Positions 3,112 to 15,821 of a DNA stretch of 64,000 bases are shown piece after piece. Where the stretch lies: contig JAQWDH010000002.1 of NCBI GenBank assembly GCA_028705565.1, positions 40,262 through 104,261 of the forward strand. The letters run 5' to 3'. The translations under genes were made by a program, and so were the position numbers. Each line of letters begins with the position of its first letter. Position 1 is the stretch's first letter. The DNA is from Patescibacteria group bacterium (lineage in GTDB: Bacteria; Patescibacteriota; Patescibacteriia; Magasanikbacterales; GWA2-37-8). The notes below the pieces were generated by a model. That model worked only from the letters and a program-made list of their open reading frames with translations, searched no databases and was not told the origin of the DNA.

Positions 3112-3543
3112 TTATACTCCTTCATGGATATTTATCGTCTTTCCTGCGGGCAAAGCGACAATCGCTTTTTTATAATCAGATCTGCGTCCCGGAATTCCGC
3201 GGCTTTTTAAAACGCGTCCGTCAATGTTGACTGTGTTCACACTCTCGGGTACTACTCCGTAAACATCATTCATAGCTTTCTTGATTTGTTTTTTATTCGC
3301 TGAACGGCTTACGACAAAAGTATATTTATTCACGCTCTCGGCTATCGCGGCTTTTTCAGTTACCAAAGGATAAAGCAAAATTTTATAAGCCGCGCTTTGC
3401 AAATTTGTTTTGGTTAATTTGCGCGCGACAGGTTCTTTATCCGCGATTTTTTGCGTACTCTCAACAGCTTCCTTTTTTGACGGAGTTTCATTCTTTTTGC
3501 TTTCTTCTTTCTTCTTTTTTAACAAACGGTCTATTAAACTCAT
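3112..3543 (-). CDS. rplW: 50S ribosomal protein L23 (with N-terminal extension)
   Basis: C-terminal 90 aa match L23 (LLYPLVTEKA...). Located between rplD and rplB. Confidence 0.85.
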   Translation of the reverse strand: MSLIDRLLKKKKEESKKNETPSKKEAVESTQKIADKEPVARKLTKTNLQSAAYKILLYPLVTEKAAIAESVNKYTFVVSRSANKKQIKKAMNDVYGVVPESVNTVNIDGRVLKSRGIPGRRSDYKKAIVALPAGKTINIHEGV

Positions 3544-4177: not shown

Positions 4178-4909
4178 TTAAATGGTTTCTTTTTCTTTTT
4201 TGTCTTCTTCTTTTTTTTCTTCCGGCTTTTCTTCAATTATCAATTCGGATGTCGGTTCGGACACATTTTGTTCAACAGGTTGCGGGGCTGTTTTTATTTT
4301 CAATTCTCCGTCTCCGATGATGACGATCAATCCGTTTCTGCCGCCCGGTACCGCTCCTTTTATATATAACTCGTCGGTTTCAGGATGAATTTCAACAATT
4401 TCCAAATTTTTTACTGTTACTTGATTTCCTCCCATTCTTCCTGCCATGCGCATTCCTTTAAAAACTCTCTGAACGCCACCGGCTCCGATTGAACCAGGCG
4501 CGCGCAAATCATGTTTGTGACCGTGTGAAGCCGGAGCTCCGGCAAAATGATGTCTTTTAACAACGCCTGCAAAACCCTTGCCTTTTGATTCTCCAAACAC
4601 ATTAACCTTGTCTCCAATGGAAAAAGTTTCCACGGTTATTTCGTCTCCGCGTTTTATGTTTCCAACCGATTCAACCGCGAATTCTTTAATCCATTTTGAT
4701 TGTTTTAAATCTTTAAGGTGTCCGGATTGCGGTTTTGGCAAACTGTCTTTTTTTGCTTCTCCCAAACCTATCTGCACGAATTTTTTATTTTCATCGTTCA
4801 CTTGCGTTATCTGGCAAGGTCCGGCTTGCACCCTTGTCACAGGCACAACTAAACCGTCTTCTTTGAAGACCTGCGACATACCAATTTTTTTTGCTAAAAT
4901 AAATTTCAT
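4178..4909 (-). CDS. rplC: 50S ribosomal protein L3 (acidic C-terminal extension)
   Basis: 243 aa matching L3 core motifs, in operon order. Confidence 0.9.
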   Translation of the reverse strand: MKFILAKKIGMSQVFKEDGLVVPVTRVQAGPCQITQVNDENKKFVQIGLGEAKKDSLPKPQSGHLKDLKQSKWIKEFAVESVGNIKRGDEITVETFSIGDKVNVFGESKGKGFAGVVKRHHFAGAPASHGHKHDLRAPGSIGAGGVQRVFKGMRMAGRMGGNQVTVKNLEIVEIHPETDELYIKGAVPGGRNGLIVIIGDGELKIKTAPQPVEQNVSEPTSELIIEEKPEEKKEEDKKEKETI

Positions 4910-5254: not shown

Positions 5255-5644
5255 TTACATTTTAATTTCTATATCCACGCCGGTCGGCAAATTCAAACTC
5301 ATTAAAGCGTCAACGCATTTCGGGGTAGGATTCAAAATGTCAATCAAACGTTTGTGCACGCGCATTTCATATTGTTCGCGCGCGTTTTTATGCACGAAAG
5401 TTGAACGATTAACAGTAAATTTGGAAATTTCAGTCGGCAACGGAATAGGTCCGATAACTTTGGCATCGTTGCGTTCAGCAGTATCAATAATCGTTTTGCT
5501 TGCTTGGTCTATTATTTTCGTGTCGTAAGCGCGAATTTTTATTCTGATGCGGTTCACGGTTTCAGCGTTTTTTTGAATCGCCTGCTCCGATGTTTTAGCC
5601 GGTTCCGTTGTTTTTTTAGCAGTTGTAGTTTTTTTAGTAACCAT
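5255..5644 (-). CDS. rpsJ: 30S ribosomal protein S10 (N-terminal extension)
   Basis: C-terminal 100 aa match S10 (IRIKIRAYD...[11 protein letters not shown]). Confidence 0.9.
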
Positions 5645-5699: not shown

Positions 5700-6890
5700 T
5701 TATTTTAATATTTTAATTACGACGCCTGCGCCGACGGTTCTGCCGCCTTCGCGAATGGCGAAGTTCATTTTTTCTTCCAAAGCCACCGGTGTAATCAATT
5801 TGACGTTCAAATTGACAGTGTCTCCTGGCATAACCATTTCCGTGCCGGCGGGCAATTCAACTTCGCCGGTAACATCCGTGGTGCGAATATAAAATTGCGG
5901 TTTATAACCTTTGAAAAACGGTTTGTGGCGTCCACCTTCTTCTTGATTCAAAACATAAACCTGCGCTTCAAAATCAGTATGAGGAGTAACGCTACCCGGC
6001 TTGGCCAATACCATACCGCGTTCAACTTCATCTTTCTTTGTGCCGCGTAAAAGTATACCGGCGTTATCTCCTGCCACGCCCTCTTTCAATGTTTTGTTAA
6101 ACATCTCAATGCCGGTAACCACTGTCTTTTGCGGTTCTTCTTTCAAACCGACTATCTCCGCATCATCGTTCACGTGAACAACGCCTCGGTCAATACGACC
6201 GGTCACGACTGTTCCGCGACCTTCAATGGAAAAGACATCTTCAATCGCCATAAGAAACGGCTTGTCAATGTCGCGTTGCGGATCAGGAATATACTCGTCC
6301 AAAGTTTTGAGCAAATCCAAAACCGGCTTTGACGCTGTTTCATCAGAAGGATTCTGAAGCGCCTGTAAAGCCGAACCGCGGATAATCGGAGTGGTATCTC
6401 CTGGAAATTTATATTTTTTAAGCAAATCGCGCACTTCAGCTTCCACCAAATCAATCAATTCCGGATCTGATACTTGGTCAACTTTATTCAAGAAAACGAT
6501 AATATAAGGCACGCCTACCTGACGAGCGAGCAAAATATGTTCGCGTGTCTGAGGCATCGGACCGTCTGCGGCGGAAACAACCAAAATAGCGCCATCCATC
6601 TGTGCCGCGCCTGTTATCATGTTCTTTACGTAATCGGCATGACCAGGACAATCCACATGCGCGTAGTGCCTCTTTTCAGTTTCATACTCAACGTGAGCGG
6701 TAGAAATGGTGATACCGCGAGATTTTGATTCCGGAGCTTTGTCCAAATCATCAACGCCTTTTTTCTGGGCGGTCATACCGCGGGCGTTCATGACCTGCAG
6801 AATGGCTGCGGTCAAAGTTGTTTTACCGTGGTCAACGTGGCCAATGGTACCAACATTGACATGCGGTTTGTTTCTTGCAAACTCTGCCAT
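5700..6890 (-). CDS. tuf: elongation factor Tu
   Basis: 396 aa with [17 protein letters not shown] and NKVD GTPase motifs. Confidence 0.98.
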
Positions 6891-7006
6891 AAACTTATTT
6901 TTTGCGGCACTGCTCCGAGTGGTCGGCGCAGATTTTTAACCAGCCGCTTCTGTTTTTTTTATAAAAAATTATATTTTCGCTTATTTCTTTTTTACGATAA
7001 GCTTCT

Positions 7007-7035
7007 ACATTATAGCATATATTCAAAATTTTGGC
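7007..7035 (-). promoter_or_regulatory. sigma70-type promoter TTGCCA-17bp-TATAAT driving tuf
   Basis: On the minus strand, -35 TTGCCA (7030-7035) and -10 TATAAT (7007-7012) are separated by exactly 17 bp, about 115 nt upstream of the tuf ATG. Confidence 0.6.
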
Positions 7036-7052
7036 AAGAGCCGGTAAAAACT

Positions 7053-7514
7053 TTACGCTACCGGCTCCAAATAATACCTGTCCTCTTCTTCGTCCGGAGC
7101 GTCGCTCGGAATATCGGCTAAACTTTCTTCTGTCTCTTCCGGCTGAATTTTTTCAATTTCTTTTTCTTCTTCTATCAAATCTTTTTTAAAATCATTGATA
7201 TCAACATCTCCAAAATTTTCAAAATTTTCGCCGTCTTCTTCGTTCTTTTTTATATGTTCGTCTTTGATTTCAAAACTTTTCGCTTCTTCTTTTTTTTCAT
7301 GTTCCGAACGCCAAACCGATATATCCCTATTTATTTTATTTAACATTTCTTCTTCATTCAAATCGCGTATGGTTTCTTTTTCGTCAAGCAATTTTTCATA
7401 TTCGCCAATGCTCATCATCATAAAAGCGCTGTCCGTATCTTTATCCAAAATCGCGCATCTGTCTCCTGTGCGGCGAATCAATTTCAAAATTTTATTTAAT
7501 TGCGGATCTGTCAT
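7053..7514 (-). CDS. hypothetical protein with a Phd/YefM-antitoxin-like N-terminal region and a highly acidic C-terminal tail
   Basis: The N-terminus KILKLIRRTGDRCAILDKDTDSAFMMMSIGEYEKL resembles the YefM/Phd core ([22 protein letters not shown]). The C-terminal half is D/E-rich. It is inserted between fusA and tuf. Confidence 0.4.
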   Translation of the reverse strand: MTDPQLNKILKLIRRTGDRCAILDKDTDSAFMMMSIGEYEKLLDEKETIRDLNEEEMLNKINRDISVWRSEHEKKEEAKSFEIKDEHIKKNEEDGENFENFGDVDINDFKKDLIEEEKEIEKIQPEETEESLADIPSDAPDEEEDRYYLEPVA

Positions 7515-7546
7515 ATTTTTTTAAAAAATATAAAAATTAGTCGGGT

Positions 7547-9619
7547 TTATTTTTGCTTGCCGGAAATTATATCTTGCGCGATATTGTTCGGCACTTCGGC
7601 GTAATGTCCGAATTCCATCGTTGAACTCGCGCGCCCTTGAGAAATACTGCGCAAAGAAGTGGCATAACCGAACATGCTCGCCAAAGGCACGATGGCTTTC
7701 ACGACTTTCATCTGCGCCCTGTCAAACATTTTCTGTATTTGGCCCCTTTTGGAATTCAAATCGCCGATTACTTCACCCATAAATTGTTCCGGCGTTACGA
7801 CTTCAACTTTCATAATCGGTTCCAAAATCGCCGGACGCGCTTTTTTACAAGCGGCTTGAAAAGCCATTGAACCCGCTATTTTGAAAGCGGCTTCCGAAGA
7901 ATCAACTTCGTGATAAGAACCGTCAAAACAACTTACCTTGATATCAACCACCGGATAACTCGCTTGGATACCGCGAGTAACGGCTTCTTTGACACCCTTT
8001 TCAATGGCCGGCAAATATTCTTTCGGAATAACACCACCTTTGATTTCATCAACGAATTCATAATTGCCGTCTGTTTTCGGTTCCACTCTCAACCAACAAT
8101 GGCCGTATTGTCCGCGACCGCCTGATTGTTTTATGTATTTCCCTTCGGCTTCGGCCATGGCGGTGATTGTTTCTTTATAAGCAACTTGCGGTTTTCCGAC
8201 ATTGGCGTCAACTCCGAATTCTCTCTTCATTCTGTCCACGATTATGTCCAAATGCAATTCTCCCATTCCGGAAATAATGGTCTGTAAAGTTTCTTCATCT
8301 GTGTGAACTTTAAATGTCGGGTCTTCTTCCATAAGTTTTTGCAAAGCCATGCTGATTTTTTCTTGGTCAGCTTTTGTTTTCGGTTCAATGGCAATAGAAA
8401 TAACAGGTTCCGGAAATACTATTTTTTCTAAAATCAACGGATGATTTTCGTCGCACAAAGTATCACCGGTGACAGTGGCTTTAAGACCTATCGCGGCCGC
8501 GATTTCTCCAGCATACACTTCTGCCACATCTTCGCGATGATTCGCGTGCATGCGCACGATGCGGCTTAAACGCTCCTTTGTTCCATTGGAAGAATTAAAA
8601 AGATAACTGCCGGCGGAAATATGGCCCGAGTAAACGCGGAAAAATATAAGACGGCCGACAAACGGATCGGTTGCAACCTTAAAAGCCAAAGCAGAAAAAG
8701 GTTCTTCATCGCTCGGTTTCCGTAATTCCTCAACATCATTGTCCGGATTTATTCCTTTTACAGGCAACAAATCAGTTGGAGCCGGCAAATACCAGGCAGC
8801 TGCGTCCAAAACCAATTGAACACCCATGTTCGCAAGCGCGGAACCGCACAATACCGCAAAAAAATCTCCTTTAATCGTCAAGGCGCGTATTGCTTTTTTT
8901 ATTTCATCAACTGTTAAAATTTCGCCGTTTAAATACCTTGCCATATATCCATCGTCTGCTTCAACAACTTTTTCCATCAATTTTGCCCTGTATTCTTTTA
9001 CCTTGTCTTTCATATCGTCAGGAATTGGAATTTCCACTATTTTTTCTCCGTTCTGGCCTTCAAATTTAAACGCTTTTTCTTCTATTAAATCAATGATGCC
9101 GGAAAATGTTCCTTCCGCGCCGATTGGCAATTGAACGGCGTAAGCGTTTGAAGATAGTCGTTCATTGATTGAATCCAAACTCATATAAAAATCCGCGCCC
9201 ATTTTATCCATTTTATTTACAAAACAAACTCGCGGCACATTGTATTTGTCCGCTTGATGCCAAACCGTTTCAGATTGCGGTTCAACGCCCTGCGAACCGT
9301 CAAACACGGCCACAGCTCCATCCAAAACGCGGAGAGACCTCTCTACTTCCACGGTAAAATCCACGTGCCCCGGAGTATCAATAATGTTTATTCTGCAACC
9401 TTTCCAAAAACAAGTGGTCGCGGCGGAAGTAATGGTGATGCCGCGCTCTTTTTCCTGTTCCATCCAATCCATTTCAGCGGCGCCTTCATGCACTTCGCCG
9501 ATTTTATGTTTTTTTCCTGTATAAAATAAAATACGTTCGGTGGCAGTGGTCTTGCCCGCGTCAATATGCGCCATGATGCCTATGTTACGCGTTTGTTCCA
9601 AAGAATATTCTCGTGACAT
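7547..9619 (-). CDS. fusA: elongation factor G
   Basis: 690 aa with [17 protein letters not shown] and full EF-G domain layout. Confidence 0.98.
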
Positions 9620-10158: not shown

Positions 10159-10587
10159 TTATTTTTTTGCGGCTTTTGGCCTCTTTGTGCCATACACGCT
10201 TCGGCCCCTGCGGCGCGTTTCAATTCCTTGCGTATCATAAACGCCGCGCACTATATGATAGCGCACGCCCGGCAAATCTTTCACCCTTCCGCCGCGAATG
10301 AGCACGATGGAGTGTTCCTGCAAATTATGTCCTTCGCCCGGGATATAAGCTATAACTTCAATTCCGTTACTAAGACGAATTTTTGCGACTTTTCGCAAAG
10401 CCGAATTCGGTTTCTTCGGGGTAGTCGTATAAACCTTTACGCACACGCCCCTTTTAAATGAAGCGCCCTTCGGCAATTCATTTTTTTTACGGTGTAAATT
10501 ATCCACCGAAAGCTGTAAAGCCGGCGTTTTGCTTTTGCGAACCTTGTTTGTTCTGCCCTTGCGGACCAATTGGCTTATAGTAGGCAT
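10159..10587 (-). CDS. rpsL: 30S ribosomal protein S12
   Basis: 142 aa, [12 protein letters not shown]...[10 protein letters not shown], nearly invariant S12 sequence. Confidence 0.98.
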
Positions 10588-10621: not shown

Positions 10622-10786
10622 AGGTTATAAATTTTAATTTTTAAATTAAGTAAAAAAAATACTGAACGGAAAGCTCAGCCACGAGTTTATATCTGATACG
10701 TTCTAAATAAGAGTATACTTGAAAACGAAAATTATGTCAAGAGCCGAAAAGAACCCGAGAAAACCGAATTATTTTTCGGTAATTTT

Positions 10787-11158
10787 TTAGATTATTTCAA
10801 CGCGGTCGCACCCTAATTGCTTGAGTTTATCTTGTATTTTTGATATTACATTTTGTTTTTGCCGCGATATTTTTTCAATCTTTAAAATTCTTTCCGAGTC
10901 ATCATCCTCTTGCGCTGTTTGTTTGGCTTCTTCTACCATTCTATCAAATTCACTTCCGTCAATTTTAAATATCCCATTCTCTAAAACGACCATGCTGCTT
11001 GGCCAAATAGCTTCGCCATGTGGATCGGCTTCTTCGTTAATGAATTTATTTAGCAACTGATTAATTTCCGGATCGTAGTCAAGTTGATTATATATTGATT
11101 CAAGATTAATCTTATTCCTCTCTTGCGGAGAAATTGTGTCTTTAAATTTTTCTGCCAT
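10787..11158 (-). CDS. hypothetical protein (acidic, 123 aa)
   Basis: ORF with no recognisable motif. Confidence 0.4.
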   Translation of the reverse strand: MAEKFKDTISPQERNKINLESIYNQLDYDPEINQLLNKFINEEADPHGEAIWPSSMVVLENGIFKIDGSEFDRMVEEAKQTAQEDDDSERILKIEKISRQKQNVISKIQDKLKQLGCDRVEII

Positions 11159-11299: not shown

Positions 11300-11420
11300 A
11301 CCGAATACACGCTGTTAGGCGATGCAAAATTTTACGCTTTTTGTTTTTTTCGCTCGCCATTAAATCTTGAGTGGCAGGGGGGGGGCGTCGATCACTATGG
11401 CGAAGGGGATGGCCCCTCGT
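11300..11420. repeat. Repeat element copy A with a G9 homopolymer tract. It shares ~75 nt (gctgttaggcg...ttttacgctttttgttttttt...G-tract...cgtcgatcactatggcgaagggg) with copy B at 14590-14745.
   Basis: Direct sequence comparison of the two regions. The G-tract is striking in an AT-rich genome. The copy overlaps the last codons of the 11395..13401 ORF. Confidence 0.6.
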
Positions 11421-13401
11421 TGTAACTTGCCGTGTTTATCCAGGTATGCTCATTTTTATTCCACAAAATTTTATTATTAATTTGCGCGCTACTTACGGTT
11501 ATTTCAGAAGTATTTTTTAAATATTCATCTCTTATTTCACAAATTATTTTTTTTGTTCCGCTTAATATTAAATCAGAATTACCATCTTTATTTGTATCTT
11601 TATATTCACTCGCCAATTTATCATTGGAAAAAATTTCTCCGCAATTACCGTATCCGTATTTTTTAAAATTGTCAGGCGACCATTTGATATCAGGGTTGAT
11701 GTCAACTGCATGGGTTTCAAACAATAAATTTAGCTTATCATTTTTAATTTCATAAATATATAAAGAACCATGACCAACATGCGTTAATCCATAAATCTCC
11801 ACTAATGGATTACCAAAACCTTCTAAACTAATAAATCTTGCCGATAAAATAGCCTGCTCACCAGGTAATTTATCTATTGGCAGCCAATTTATATTTTTAT
11901 TCTTGACATTACCAACTTTTATTTCTTCCCACCAGTCTCTCTCCCATTCTATTTGCGCCAAAAAATATTTTTTATTTTGGCTATATGTTAATTCAATGTC
12001 TTCCAGTTGTTCACTTTGCCCTTTCACAATTTGATCTTTTATTTTATTCTCCAATGAATAGACAATACTGCCATTCAAAAATAACGGCAATATCATGATT
12101 AATAAAATTGACCAAAGGCGAATTATTCCTAGCTTTTTGTCTTTTTTTACACCTTTCTTATATATATTCCAAACATTATCTACGTATTCTTGTTTACCAG
12201 GGCCGTATTTTAAGACAGCTTCTTGCCATGATTTCCAATATCTTTTATTATCAGGGGTTATACCTTGAGCTTTGTGATAAAGCCATCTTACACCCCAATT
12301 AATACTGTCCTTGACTGTTTCCACCTTAGCATCATATTTTAAAAGTATTGTTTTACCATTATGAATCCAATATTCCGGAAGCTCTCCTCTTAGGGTTAAT
12401 ATTGACGGATCACCTCCATTTCCAACTTGCATGACATTTGATCCAGCCATTTTATCAAACCCCACTCTGCTTTCTTGGTACATTATCGCCTTCACTAAAT
12501 TAGGATCTAAAAATTCGCTGGGTGGATCAGTATCTTTCAAAAATTCATTATTCCAGTAAGTGACCGCTTCTGCTATTATCGCGTCATATCGGTTATAATC
12601 TTCCTTGCACCCAACACCCCCGCATGTATAAAGTCTAGTAATTGCTTCATTATTTTCGCCATTACTATTATTAGTAGCCAAAACCATTATTTCAATCTTT
12701 TTTAAAGTTGGACTTTTGTCCGCCCACAGCTCAATAAAATGTTTTCCTTTCCCCAAATTCAACTCTTTTGTATATTCCCTTTCATTCCCTTTTAACATTT
12801 TTCCACACCAATACCAATCTTTATGCGAATTTTTATTTTCGTTTTCTTCTACTTTGCCGTCAACAACCACTTTAATATCATCGTCATCTCTTTTTAATTT
12901 ATTCGCGCTTGCAACGATATGGAGTTTTTTAATGGCTAAATTTTGTAAAACATAATTTATCCATGGCCTCCTGTCTCCTTTTTCTGGTGGATTATTATTT
13001 AATGGAGAATAAATTATTGTTTGGTTATCCATTTCTTCCAATTCCATTATATTGATGCTTTCTAAACTTGGACTTTGGTCAGGCCGCAATCGAAGAGTGT
13101 GCCCGCCTTTCTTTAAAATGGTGGCAACCAGTACTATTTTTGATAATCCTTTTAACTCATTGCCGTTCCAAATTGCTTTAACATCAATGTCCTTGCTGTT
13201 TGAAGTAAAAATTTCAGTATTGTCTAAATACAAAATTATATCATCATCTTTAAAAAAAGATCTAAAACTTTTAAAGTTTTGCCACCAGCTTTTTGCTTTG
13301 GCTATTACTTCAATCAAATAAACACCCTCATTTGTTTCAAAAAAATAAAAAAAATCTTCTTTTATTTCTTTGTTTATTTTTTGGCTATGAAGTAATTTCA
13401 T
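11395..13401 (-). CDS. large multidomain protein with two internal repeated modules, a lytic-transglycosylase (SLT)-like motif (AIMYQESRVGFD), a central transmembrane helix and a C-terminal domain
   Basis: The ES-containing motif resembles the SLT catalytic glutamate region. A hydrophobic segment LGIIRLWSILLIMILPLFL is present. The C-terminal residues read into repeat element A. Confidence 0.5.
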   Translation of the reverse strand: MKLLHSQKINKEIKEDFFYFFETNEGVYLIEVIAKAKSWWQNFKSFRSFFKDDDIILYLDNTEIFTSNSKDIDVKAIWNGNELKGLSKIVLVATILKKGGHTLRLRPDQSPSLESINIMELEEMDNQTIIYSPLNNNPPEKGDRRPWINYVLQNLAIKKLHIVASANKLKRDDDDIKVVVDGKVEENENKNSHKDWYWCGKMLKGNEREYTKELNLGKGKHFIELWADKSPTLKKIEIMVLATNNSNGENNEAITRLYTCGGVGCKEDYNRYDAIIAEAVTYWNNEFLKDTDPPSEFLDPNLVKAIMYQESRVGFDKMAGSNVMQVGNGGDPSILTLRGELPEYWIHNGKTILLKYDAKVETVKDSINWGVRWLYHKAQGITPDNKRYWKSWQEAVLKYGPGKQEYVDNVWNIYKKGVKKDKKLGIIRLWSILLIMILPLFLNGSIVYSLENKIKDQIVKGQSEQLEDIELTYSQNKKYFLAQIEWERDWWEEIKVGNVKNKNINWLPIDKLPGEQAILSARFISLEGFGNPLVEIYGLTHVGHGSLYIYEIKNDKLNLLFETHAVDINPDIKWSPDNFKKYGYGNCGEIFSNDKLASEYKDTNKDGNSDLILSGTKKIICEIRDEYLKNTSEITVSSAQINNKILWNKNEHTWINTASYNEGPSPSP

Positions 13402-13820: not shown

Positions 13821-14412
13821 TCAATCCAAATGCTCCTTGCAATTAAAGACACACGTTTTATGATTTTTATCTTCATCAATTTCAAAAATACAGATACTCG
13901 TATTGTGTAAGTTTTCAATTGATTTTATAGCATCAGGCGTTTTATTTGTTATTACAGCTATTAATGCCTTGTTTATGCTATTATGTCCTGCAAATAAAAC
14001 GGTGTCTTTTGAATGTTTTGTTAAAATGTTATACAAGAACTTTTTAGCGCGATTGAATAATTCTTCAAATGTTTCGCCATCTTTGGGAGAAATTCCCGCA
14101 ATACTTAGAGTTTTTGGGAATCCAAGTTCAGTTTTACTTTTGCCTTGCCATTCTCCTAAATATTTTTCTCTCAATTCTTTAACAAACTCAATCGGAACAG
14201 TTAAATGAAATTTTGCAATTTCTTTCGCGGTATCTGAAGTTCTTGCCAAATCACTTGAATATATAAAATCAATTTTTTCATCTTTTAATCTTAACGCGAC
14301 TTTCTTTGCTTGAACAATGCCTATATTTGAAAGTTTGCCAGGCAAGTGCCCTTGAATAATTCCAGCGGCATTTTCTTCTGTTTCGCCATGTCTTGTGATA
14401 ATGAGTTTCATA
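13821..14412 (-). CDS. histidine phosphatase superfamily protein (phosphoglycerate-mutase-like)
   Basis: RHGE catalytic motif (MKLIITRHGETEEN). Start set at the internal Met at 14412. Confidence 0.7.
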
Positions 14413-14589
14413 CAGGGAAGATAAAAATCATAAAATGTATGTCTTTTGTAATCGCATTTGGATTGATGGCCAAAATTCAAATTTCGCCTAACGTTCGCCG
14501 ATATGCGCTGTTTCGCACATTCCATTAAAATTAAATTTGTGCGAAATATGGGTGAGAGAAAAAGTGTATCCGCTGAAAATTATTTACAC

Positions 14590-14765: not shown

Positions 14766-15821
14766 TCAGTTGGCAATGTAGGCGGTGGTTTTTCCTTTTC
14801 CTGTTGCTTTAATCATTTTAATTTTCTTTAATTTTTGTAATTGTAATTGTGCGGATCGGCGCGGGCAAGATAAAATGTCCTCGACATCTTTAACGGCGAT
14901 GCGACCGACCTGATCTAAAAAGTCAATAATTTTTAGTTGTTCGGGAGTAAGGTAAATTTGTGATTTGATTTTTCCATCAACATTACGGGTGGATAATGGC
15001 AGGACTTTGTTTTTTACCTCATCAATTTCTTTTTTGAACCCTTTTACAAAATATTCCAACCACGATGTAATGTCTGTGCGTCGTTCATCATAAGTTTTGC
15101 CTAAGTTTATGGCGTTATAATATGACTGGCGGTCAGTGTTATAATAATCCTCTAAAGCAAACAAACGCCGAAAATCATATCCGCGCTGATAAAGTATTAA
15201 GGTGGCTAAAGCGCGAGCCGTACGGCCGTTGCCGTCGTTAAATGGGTGAATGGCGGCAATTTCCATGTGAGCAATAGCAGCTACAAGCACGGGGCTTATT
15301 TCTTGCATTTCGCTTTCTGTAAGCCATGCCACAAACTCAGACATTAGTTGGGGTACCTTTTTGGCCTCTGGCCCGGTATACAAGGTTTCTTGGGGTATAC
15401 CCAAACGACGGCGGACAACAAAAATTGGTCCGGGTCGGTAATGGCCACAGAATTGAGGTGCTAAAGTTTTATTGGCGACTAATTTATGTATTTTTAAAAT
15501 TATTTTTTCAGTTATTGGTTTATGTTCAGTTACAACTTTTTCAATAAAATTAAGAGCATTGAGATAATTTTTTACTTCGTAAATATCCCGGTCGGGCGCG
15601 TCTATTTTTTTCTTGGCATAAAGCGCCTCTACTTGCCCCATGTTTAATTTATTGCCCTCAATCTCGGTGGAGTGGTGGGTCATGCGGATAATCGCTTGTC
15701 GGCGCAATTTTATCTCTTGTTGTGGTAAAATTTTAGCACGATCAATAATGCCTTTTGCCTCGGCGATAGCAGTAAGGTCGCGTAAAATTTTATTGGTGTG
15801 TTTGTATTTGGGGGCAAACAT
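14766..15821 (-). CDS. Fic/Doc family protein (Fido domain, C-terminal winged-helix)
   Basis: Contains the canonical Fic motif HPFNDGNGRTAR. Confidence 0.85.
   Translation of the reverse strand: MFAPKYKHTNKILRDLTAIAEAKGIIDRAKILPQQEIKLRRQAIIRMTHHSTEIEGNKLNMGQVEALYAKKKIDAPDRDIYEVKNYLNALNFIEKVVTEHKPITEKIILKIHKLVANKTLAPQFCGHYRPGPIFVVRRRLGIPQETLYTGPEAKKVPQLMSEFVAWLTESEMQEISPVLVAAIAHMEIAAIHPFNDGNGRTARALATLILYQRGYDFRRLFALEDYYNTDRQSYYNAINLGKTYDERRTDITSWLEYFVKGFKKEIDEVKNKVLPLSTRNVDGKIKSQIYLTPEQLKIIDFLDQVGRIAVKDVEDILSCPRRSAQLQLQKLKKIKMIKATGKGKTTAYIAN

Follow-up and report, generated by a model that had tools for sequence, protein, structure and literature searches.

Why does a gene for a small, strongly acidic protein stand between fusA and tuf, which are among the most conserved gene pairs in bacteria? 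The question is raised by a 64,000-nucleotide stretch of a Patescibacteria contig (JAQWDH010000002.1, positions 40,262 to 104,261; hereafter the window), where an open reading frame (ORF) for 153 amino acids (aa) separates the genes for elongation factors G (EF-G) and Tu (EF-Tu). The original prediction, drawn from the letters of this stretch, had described the ORF as an orphan antitoxin-like gene inserted between the two. The observation was confirmed as a whole, and its interpretation is partly supported. The ORF belongs to a large family that had not been described before; it was seen here only in Patescibacteria, and its gene lies almost always immediately upstream of tuf. That this family is conserved, linked to tuf and not a toxin-antitoxin component is a conclusion that we hold with high confidence; what the protein does can be proposed more tentatively. 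The three genes concerned are:

7053..7514, minus strand: gene for the 153-aa tuf-upstream acidic protein, with its stop codon at 7053-7055 (ORF listing and sequence).
5700..6890, minus strand: tuf (EF-Tu, 396 aa), to which the acidic-protein family is linked (ORF listing and synteny counts).
7547..9619, minus strand: fusA (EF-G, 690 aa), the upstream neighbour of the 153-aa ORF (ORF listing).

The ORF is found where the prediction had put it, in a minus-strand series with the order rpsL (10159-10587), rpsG, fusA, 153-aa ORF, tuf, rpsJ, rplC, rplD and rplW. It starts 32 nucleotides (nt) after the fusA stop codon, and because the promoter scan found no promoter-like site in this 32-nt gap, it is probably co-transcribed with rpsL-rpsG-fusA from a TTGACA-17-TATACT promoter-like site located upstream of rpsL, at 10740..10712. 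Its sequence is AT-rich and of low complexity, no obvious Shine-Dalgarno sequence was seen in the 32 nt upstream of the start, and the opposite strand is also open, features that would be expected of a spurious frame in a non-coding spacer. The antisense ORF (109 aa, 7195-7524, plus strand) overlaps the acidic-protein gene; its low-complexity, S/F/L-rich sequence mirrors that of the acidic coding strand, and it almost certainly does not represent a gene. For the 153-aa ORF, the protein-level evidence points the other way: hundreds of clusters of homologues with 33–50% identity keep its motifs, the linker between them stays in frame while varying in length, the extreme C-terminus is conserved, and the AlphaFold model of the N-terminal domain is confident. 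Since homologues at 35–50% identity retain the motifs, with a linker that changes in length without leaving the frame, the ORF is, judged from sequence, a genuine gene and not a frame open by chance. The unconserved spacer against which the prediction had set its own reading did not come true, and a spurious ORF, the probability of which we consider negligible, is effectively refuted.

An identical protein was retrieved from NCBI metagenome-assembled genomes (MAGs) of Patescibacteria, annotated as "hypothetical protein", together with five relatives at 41–45% identity (word-indexed search). When 1.84 billion cluster representatives were searched exhaustively with phmmer, 789 related clusters came up at E<=1e-3, 189 of them at E<=1e-10. 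Scanning GTDB, at one genome per species, with the pattern LDKINRDI (from alignment A3) yielded 133 relatives, so that the family is encoded by at least 133 GTDB species genomes, apparently all of them Patescibacteria. From these, 80 loci were fetched with flanks of 4.5 kb. Their sources are Falkowbacteria, Komeilibacteria, Buchananbacteria, Parcubacteria and unclassified Patescibacteria MAGs, and the use of a single pattern biases the set toward ABY1- and Parcubacteria-type genomes. Many of the GTDB representative MAGs that carry the locus (L008, L011, L016, L022, L024 and others) are titled "uncultured Gammaproteobacteria bacterium"; since the similarity of their EF-Tu and EF-G to those of the window is about the same as in loci with Patescibacteria titles, these titles are probably a placeholder or labelling error. 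The family as such was not found in Pfam, NCBIfam or PADLOC, and literature searches gave no description of it; in one IMG pipeline a member carries the name "PHD/YefM family antitoxin".

The position of the gene relative to tuf is conserved as well. The family ORF could be delimited in 77 of the fetched loci, 74 of which contain tuf, and in 72 of these 74 the tuf start lies no more than 600 nt downstream of the ORF, with a median gap of 138 nt. Four contigs of the window's own clade (L088, L089, L091 and L092; EF-Tu 82–91% identical) also all have tuf downstream, and the gene is likewise found between fusA and tuf for the relatives P0002 (four contigs) and P0006 (two contigs). On the other side, fusA ends within 300 nt upstream of the ORF in only 50 of the 77 loci, being further off or beyond the 4.5-kb flank elsewhere, and two of the four window-clade contigs show divergent neighbours in place of fusA and a promoter-like site of the ORF's own. 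As fusA upstream is less constant than tuf downstream, the conserved linkage is to tuf and not to fusA. In L007 (900-4000), several small genes, for an NYN domain, a ParE-like toxin with its presumed antitoxin and a SET domain are inserted between the fusA end and the family gene, which indicates that the fusA side of the junction tolerates insertions. The check on fusA-tuf synteny suggested by the prediction thus recovered the same inserted gene in relatives, and the gene proved to be neither an orphan nor a genome-specific insertion: with 789 clusters and at least 133 species, it is a lineage-wide syntenic gene.

The whole 153-aa protein contains 31% aspartate plus glutamate (D+E) and has an isoelectric point of 4.3, with D+E rising to 40% over residues 71-153, in agreement with the acidic tail originally described. 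Alignments of the family resolved four modules, namely an N-terminal domain, a conserved helix, a polyacidic disordered linker and a C-terminal tip, which in the window are encoded as follows:

7374..7514, minus strand: N-terminal domain, residues 1-47, with a basic helix a1, two strands and helix a2; Phd/YefM-like, divergent and without strand b1 (Pfam/NCBIfam, hhalign, AlphaFold, conservation).
7299..7364, minus strand: conserved helix 3, residues 51-72 (LNEEEMLNKINRDISVWRSEHE), with family motif LxExELLxKINRDIxxW and invariant W68 (alignments; predicted local distance difference test, pLDDT, 86-93).
7131..7298, minus strand: polyacidic linker, residues 73-128, of low model confidence and taken as disordered (composition; pLDDT 55-62).
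7056..7130, minus strand: conserved C-terminal module, residues 129-153 (EESLADIPSDAPDEEEDRYYLEPVA) (lists of C-termini, alignment).

The N-terminal ~45 residues of the family follow the pattern L-x-K-x3-L-x3-T-G-D-R, two hydrophobic strands and V-M-S-L-x-E-Y-E-x-L, where T16-G17-D18 and Y39-E40 (window numbering) are near-invariant, and the first 20 residues carry a net charge of +3 in an otherwise acidic protein. Helix 3 (L-T-E-x-E-L-L-D-K-I-N-R-D-I-A-x-W, with the Trp invariant) is amphipathic, near-invariant and present in 152 of 155 family members. The linker spans 19–192 residues (median 67), with a median of 33% D+E and 9% K+R. Across all these lengths the tip remains conserved and strictly C-terminal. 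The C-terminal module consists of hydrophobic-x-[IVL]-P, an acidic run, and [KR]-[FY]-Y-[LFI]-E-P-[VI] at the extreme C-terminus; the family ending reads [DE]3-4-[KR]-[FY]-Y-[LFI]-E-P-[VI]-E; Y147, Y148 and E150 are invariant among the six closest sequences. Members of the Parcubacteria type end in W-x-I-P-x3-K-x2-A-E-E-[IV]-I-E-E-D-R-Q-Y-L-E-E-x-x-F. No other ORF with a tip-like ending was found in the ~800 kb made up of the window and the loci.

Structure prediction with AlphaFold from a 97-sequence alignment placed helices at residues 3-16, 36-44 and 54-90 and strands at 21-24 and 29-32. The pLDDT was 85-93 up to about residue 80 (85-91 in the N-terminal domain); it fell to 55-62 in the linker and rose slightly, to 64-69, at the tip. 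The division into a folded part and a tail, which the prediction had proposed to examine in this way, is therefore seen in the model, confident to about residue 80 and with pLDDT 55-69 beyond about residue 90.

Is the N-terminal domain that of a Phd/YefM antitoxin, as first suggested for its ~45 residues? Against the window protein, Pfam PF02604 aligned to residues 5-57 with 15.8 bits (E=0.012), below the cut-off of 29.8, and NCBIfam gave no match. At the level of the family the signal is clearer, as PF02604 matched 72 of 97 members at E<=0.1 (best E 7e-9) and TIGR01552 matched six of 97 (best 1.9e-5). An hhalign comparison with YefM, Phd and RelJ, in which the YefM sequence had been checked against PDB 2a6q, gave 55% probability and E=1.2e-4 over 38 columns, with query residues 5-43 corresponding to YefM 12-49, in the same register as the Pfam alignment. 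Moreover, the predicted order a1-b-b-a2 fits the Phd/YefM fold minus its first strand, and as all homologues begin at the same point, b1 is missing family-wide. Foldseek searches with the full model and with a dedicated model of residues 1-72 (pLDDT 81.6) returned no antitoxin, and no structure in PDB or BFVD matched significantly. Matches of the family profile among PDB sequences (glia maturation factor, a myosin chimera, an esterase) were discarded as chance. For the C-terminal toxin-binding segment of Phd/YefM no counterpart was found, the Pfam alignment stopping at profile position 63 of 74 and that of hhalign at YefM residue 49.

A divergent, truncated Phd/YefM-type domain without b1 is consequently a moderately well supported description of the N-terminal domain. 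The likeness stood at the family level, by PF02604, TIGR01552 and hhalign, and the profile check proposed at the outset came out sub-threshold for the window protein itself (E=0.012) with 72 of 97 relatives matching; it did not extend to the Pfam cut-off, to an antitoxin in Foldseek or to the rest of the protein, which beyond residue ~50 is, as far as its sequence tells, new and without a Phd/YefM counterpart.

A Phd/YefM-like domain could mean that the ORF encodes a genuine type II antitoxin whose toxin lies elsewhere, for instance at the Fic/Doc gene 7 kb away, and which shields EF-Tu from phosphorylation or AMPylation. Besides the domain itself, this explanation is favoured by the antitoxin label from the IMG pipeline, by the fact that Doc phosphorylates EF-Tu, and by the presence in the window of the Fic-family gene that had been pointed out:

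14766-15821, minus strand: Fic-family ORF, 351 aa (PF02661, E=8.6e-19).

In the Fic protein, the AMPylase motif HPFNDGNGRTAR is accompanied by an N-terminal inhibitory helix S-T-E-I-E-G (S-x-x-x-E-G) and a C-terminal extension, and the protein matches the PADLOC SoFic model, a single-gene defence model, over its full length (E=9e-55). Doc has the motif H-x-F-x-[DN]-[AG]-N-K-R in a small (~125 aa), Phd-paired protein, neither of which describes the 351-aa Fic protein. A Doc identity was rejected on the AMPylase motif, the protein's own inhibitory motif and the SoFic match, and the suggested link to Doc was not borne out. Because it has an inhibitory motif of its own and matches SoFic throughout, the Fic protein needs no Phd partner; it is probably a defence or AMPylase protein of the self-inhibited SoFic type, self-contained and unrelated to the acidic-protein ORF.

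The neighbourhood of the family gene also speaks against an antitoxin acting in trans. As the prediction had noted for the window, no toxin gene is adjacent; tuf is the gene immediately downstream in 76 of 79 informative loci (72 of 74 from GTDB and four of five from the window clade), and a toxin gene in none. The region by which Phd binds Doc is without counterpart in the ORF, and no Fic gene appears in the gene tables that were consulted for individual loci, a check that did not include the 80 GTDB loci. In addition, synteny is fixed in at least 133 species, unlike that of mobile toxin-antitoxin modules. We regard an antitoxin in trans as very improbable.

The region between the ORF and tuf contains three elements:

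7009..7037, minus strand: promoter-like site for tuf, TTGCCA-17-(TG)TATAAT with an extended TG, directly after the ORF (scan).
7037-7068, minus strand: inverted repeat or RNA hairpin with a 10-bp stem, GGAGCCGGUA-N12-UACCGGCUCU (sequence; fold ~-17 kcal/mol).
6903..6948, minus strand: short-form leader in the 5' untranslated region of tuf, ending 13 nt before the tuf ATG (minimum free energy structure).

The TTGCCA-17-TATAAT promoter that had been proposed for tuf was recovered at 7037..7009 with a score of 11/12, among the two best sites in 5.3 kb, and both its position and its sequence are kept in the close relatives L088, L089, L091 and L092. The hairpin also exists, with a length of ~30 nt and not of ~30 aa as had been written. 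The final four codons of the ORF and its stop codon lie within it, and its 3' arm abuts the -35 hexamer. A terminator reading of it was rejected: it is without a U-tract and is not conserved, being absent from the close relatives L088-L092. The scan that picked out the promoter-like site did not score it as a terminator, and the hairpin scan across the loci revealed no conserved hairpin or terminator at the ORF end. In 11 of 77 loci, though not in the window, the stretch from the ORF stop to the tuf -35 hexamer holds DnaA-box-like octamers T[GAT]TCCACA in either orientation. They lie in the first ~35 nt after the ORF stop (L088:1842-1870, L089:~945, L091:~1414, L092:~2366, L077 and L084-L087), and their density of 0.96 per kb between ORF and tuf promoter, versus 0.097 per kb across all loci, corresponds to a ~10-fold enrichment.

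This arrangement of antitoxin-like gene, promoter, leader and tuf admits a regulatory explanation, in which a Phd-like dimer would act as autoregulator of tuf on the promoter region or the leader RNA, with the acidic tail inhibiting and free EF-Tu serving as co-repressor through that tail. Phd and YefM do bind operators, their disordered tails modulating the binding, and the net charge of +3 over the first 20 residues, the inverted repeat abutting the -35 hexamer and the enriched octamers would all fit such a role. No operator-like repeat conserved across the loci was found, however, and the hairpin of the window is lineage-specific. The b1 segment, where YefM has a basic residue that has been linked to the binding of DNA, is missing from the N-terminus of the family; a stand-alone copy of the gene exists (L090); and the ORF-tuf pair is kept without a recognisable leader in 16 of 75 loci, which shows that the ORF is not leader-dependent. 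We consider autoregulation unlikely, with a chance that is small but real.

The leader is a subject in its own right. Most loci show conservation over the 50–100 nt that precede the tuf ATG, with a pattern composed of stem P1 (ACGGC/GCCGU), an unpaired UGG, an optional hairpin P2, an unpaired A-rich CAAAUAAC, hairpin P3 and the closure of P1, which comes 10–20 nt before the ATG. In the window, P1 is GCGGC/GCCGC, the unpaired elements are UGG and UUAAAAAUC, P3 is CUGCGCCGA-CCAC-UCGGAGCAG and there is no P2; the four relatives from the window clade have the same short form. RNAalifold recovered the three stems. Among 37 long-form leaders, 91.4% of cells pair versus 83.4% in shuffles, a value reached by none of 500, and 49 double-change cells compare with 16 in shuffles (again 0/500); slid controls pair at 31–49%. 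P1 is nearly invariant within these 37, and its compensatory changes were seen between lineages (AGACC/GGUCU, AGUUC/GAACU, AGGUU/GACCU, GUAGC/GCUAU) in a scripted test that is partly circular.

A covariance model of the leader (R1) gave one strong match per locus in 55 loci, 12 of them outside the seed, all on the coding strand between ORF and tuf. In a pattern scan of metagenomes four of 120 matches were true leaders (65–67 bits), all with ORF and tuf, chance matches reaching at most 32 bits. Other examples are found at L049:4925-4990, L035:4933-4995 and in L091 upstream of 1574. No Rfam 15 family reached its gathering threshold in the window or in 12 loci (best 19 bits versus 45 required), and literature searches gave no description of a tuf leader. 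The leader is thus a candidate for a new cis-regulatory RNA of tuf, and perhaps of the tuf-S10 cluster, for which the candidate ligands are EF-Tu, the ORF product itself, or a ribosomal protein encoded in the S10 cluster that follows.

What, then, might the acidic protein do? Phd/YefM antitoxins are dimers with disordered C-termini that fold on their toxins. We infer that the ORF product is a dimeric adaptor derived from the antitoxin fold, which binds a component of translation, most likely EF-Tu. The N-terminal domain would keep the dimerising scaffold role that it has in antitoxins, and helix 3 and the tip would be binding elements that fold upon contact with the partner, as antitoxin tails wrap around toxins. 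The partner would be an abundant translation component and not a toxin: the protein is presumably made at str-operon levels, which makes an abundant partner likely, and EF-Tu is the prime candidate because tuf is where a toxin gene would be expected. No PADLOC defence model matched any of five members of the acidic-protein family at E<=0.01, which also fits this proposal. The ORF would be expressed with the str operon (rpsL-rpsG-fusA), or from a promoter of its own where fusA is elsewhere, and tuf would be driven by its own promoter with the structured leader. Through its long acidic tethers a dimer could hold or sequester two partner molecules, and the outcome may be buffering, regulation, chaperoning or delivery of free EF-Tu, or a feedback control.

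Several points weigh against this proposal. The closest homologue of the window protein, P0007 (47% identity; L090:354-815), is not next to tuf and forms a transcription unit by itself, equipped with a TTTACA-17-TATAAT promoter-like site, a terminator-like hairpin followed by a T-run, and convergent unrelated genes on its flanks; the linkage to tuf is for this reason strong but not obligatory. The family profile, run against PDB sequences, does not reach the solved antitoxins. Finally, gene neighbourhood alone cannot tell whether the target is EF-Tu, the ribosome, EF-G or the control region of tuf. Taken as a whole, a conserved tuf-linked family of dimeric antitoxin-fold adaptors with EF-Tu as partner is a tentative proposal that falls somewhat short of being probable, and EF-Tu specifically as the partner is a possibility to be held with doubt. 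A His_Phos_1 gene lies near P0007 in L090, as one does in the window (13821-14525).

Given its modular plan, the protein might also be a polyanionic mimic or tether whose target is the ribosome or RNA polymerase and not EF-Tu, either as a stalk-like arm recruiting GTPases or as a nucleic-acid mimic similar to the delta subunit. A folded N-terminal domain, an acidic disordered tail and an aromatic or hydrophobic C-terminal tip would suit it, as would the location of the gene in the str operon beside both GTPase genes. Many tips of the Parcubacteria type end in I/L-P-F or x-x-F, endings that resemble the tips of single-stranded DNA-binding protein (SSB) and of stalk proteins. None of the searches, however, revealed similarity in sequence or fold to bL12, P1/P2, SSB or RpoE, the linkage is to tuf specifically and not to ribosomal-protein or rpo genes, and the case is one of analogy. 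We judge such a mimic to be quite unlikely.

An extended form of the adaptor proposal would have the antitoxin fold domesticated early in Patescibacteria as a lineage-specific translation factor, the acidic tails and aromatic tips of the dimer docking on EF-Tu and the protein setting EF-Tu levels together with the leader. Docking would mimic aminoacyl-tRNA or a stalk tail, and EF-Tu would be stored, chaperoned or delivered in these reduced-genome symbionts. This is a speculative extension, to which we assign a low probability. What is new here is the architecture around the Phd/YefM-type domain and its housekeeping context, the function being inferred. Patescibacteria are already known for unusual ribosomes, and a gene kept in front of tuf across a phylum-scale radiation suggests an unrecognised component or regulator of their elongation machinery. 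If the adaptor proposal is true, the family would show clearly that a toxin-antitoxin fold can be taken over for a core housekeeping task. For experiments, the conserved motif at the C-terminus offers a directly testable handle, and the covarying tuf leader is a candidate new cis-regulatory RNA of an elongation-factor gene.

Some of the neighbouring genes in the window deserve mention. Directly upstream of the str-operon promoter, the ORFs at 11395-13401 (minus strand, 668 aa) and 10787-11158 (minus strand, 123 aa) gave no Pfam match at E<=1e-3. Downstream of tuf, S10 (rpsJ, 5255-5644) has ~25 additional N-terminal residues, L3 (rplC, 4178-4909) an E/K-rich C-terminal tail and L23 (rplW, 3112-3543) a K/E-rich N-terminal extension of ~45 aa.

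We compared the family and its leader with known systems. The delta subunit (RpoE) of Firmicute RNA polymerase consists of a small folded N-terminal domain and a long polyanionic disordered tail, for which nucleic-acid mimicry has been proposed. The acidic protein shares this plan and differs from delta in that the latter has a HARE-HTH fold, no conserved C-terminal tip and no linkage to tuf, the searches having shown no similarity between the two. The acidic tip of SSB (D-D-D-I-P-F) is likewise an acidic run with a hydrophobic or aromatic C-terminal end, and several family members end in I-P-F, L-P-F or V-P-F. Unlike SSB, however, the family has its most conserved core in [KR]-[FYQ]-Y-[LFI]-E, lacks an OB fold and stands in another genomic context.

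Another comparison is with the archaeal and eukaryotic stalk proteins (aP1, P1/P2), in which a dimerising N-terminal domain is joined by a flexible acidic linker to a conserved hydrophobic or aromatic C-terminal tip that binds translational GTPases. The order of N-terminal domain, acidic linker and tip is common to both, and the acidic-protein gene lies between two GTPase genes; sequence and fold are nevertheless dissimilar, the N-terminal domain is Phd-like, and nothing points to ribosome binding. The leader, in turn, resembles the autoregulatory r-leader families that Rfam describes for ribosomal-protein operons: its structure is compact, covarying and made up of several stems, and it stops a few nt short of the ribosome-binding region of the first gene in a translation operon (tuf-rpsJ-rplC...). 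It differs from them in preceding tuf and not a ribosomal-protein gene and in matching no Rfam 15 family.

The acidic protein was also compared with the Phd/YefM antitoxins (Escherichia coli YefM, PDB 2A6Q; P1 Phd; Mycobacterium tuberculosis RelJ). Both have an N-terminal a1-b-b-a2 core, predicted for the acidic protein, with the hallmark of a hydrophobic strand followed by M/L-S, two or three residues and Y/F-E-x-L, both have a disordered C-terminal half with conserved elements that bind the partner or, in the acidic protein, may do so, and both are encoded directly upstream of the gene of the presumed partner. The acidic-protein family departs from the antitoxins in lacking strand b1 and the start of a1 and in having a C-terminal half with no counterpart among them, and it is followed not by a toxin gene but by tuf, which has a promoter and a leader to itself. 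Moreover, Phd/YefM modules are mobile and patchy in distribution, whereas the acidic-protein family is chromosomally fixed in a core operon of a phylum-level group.

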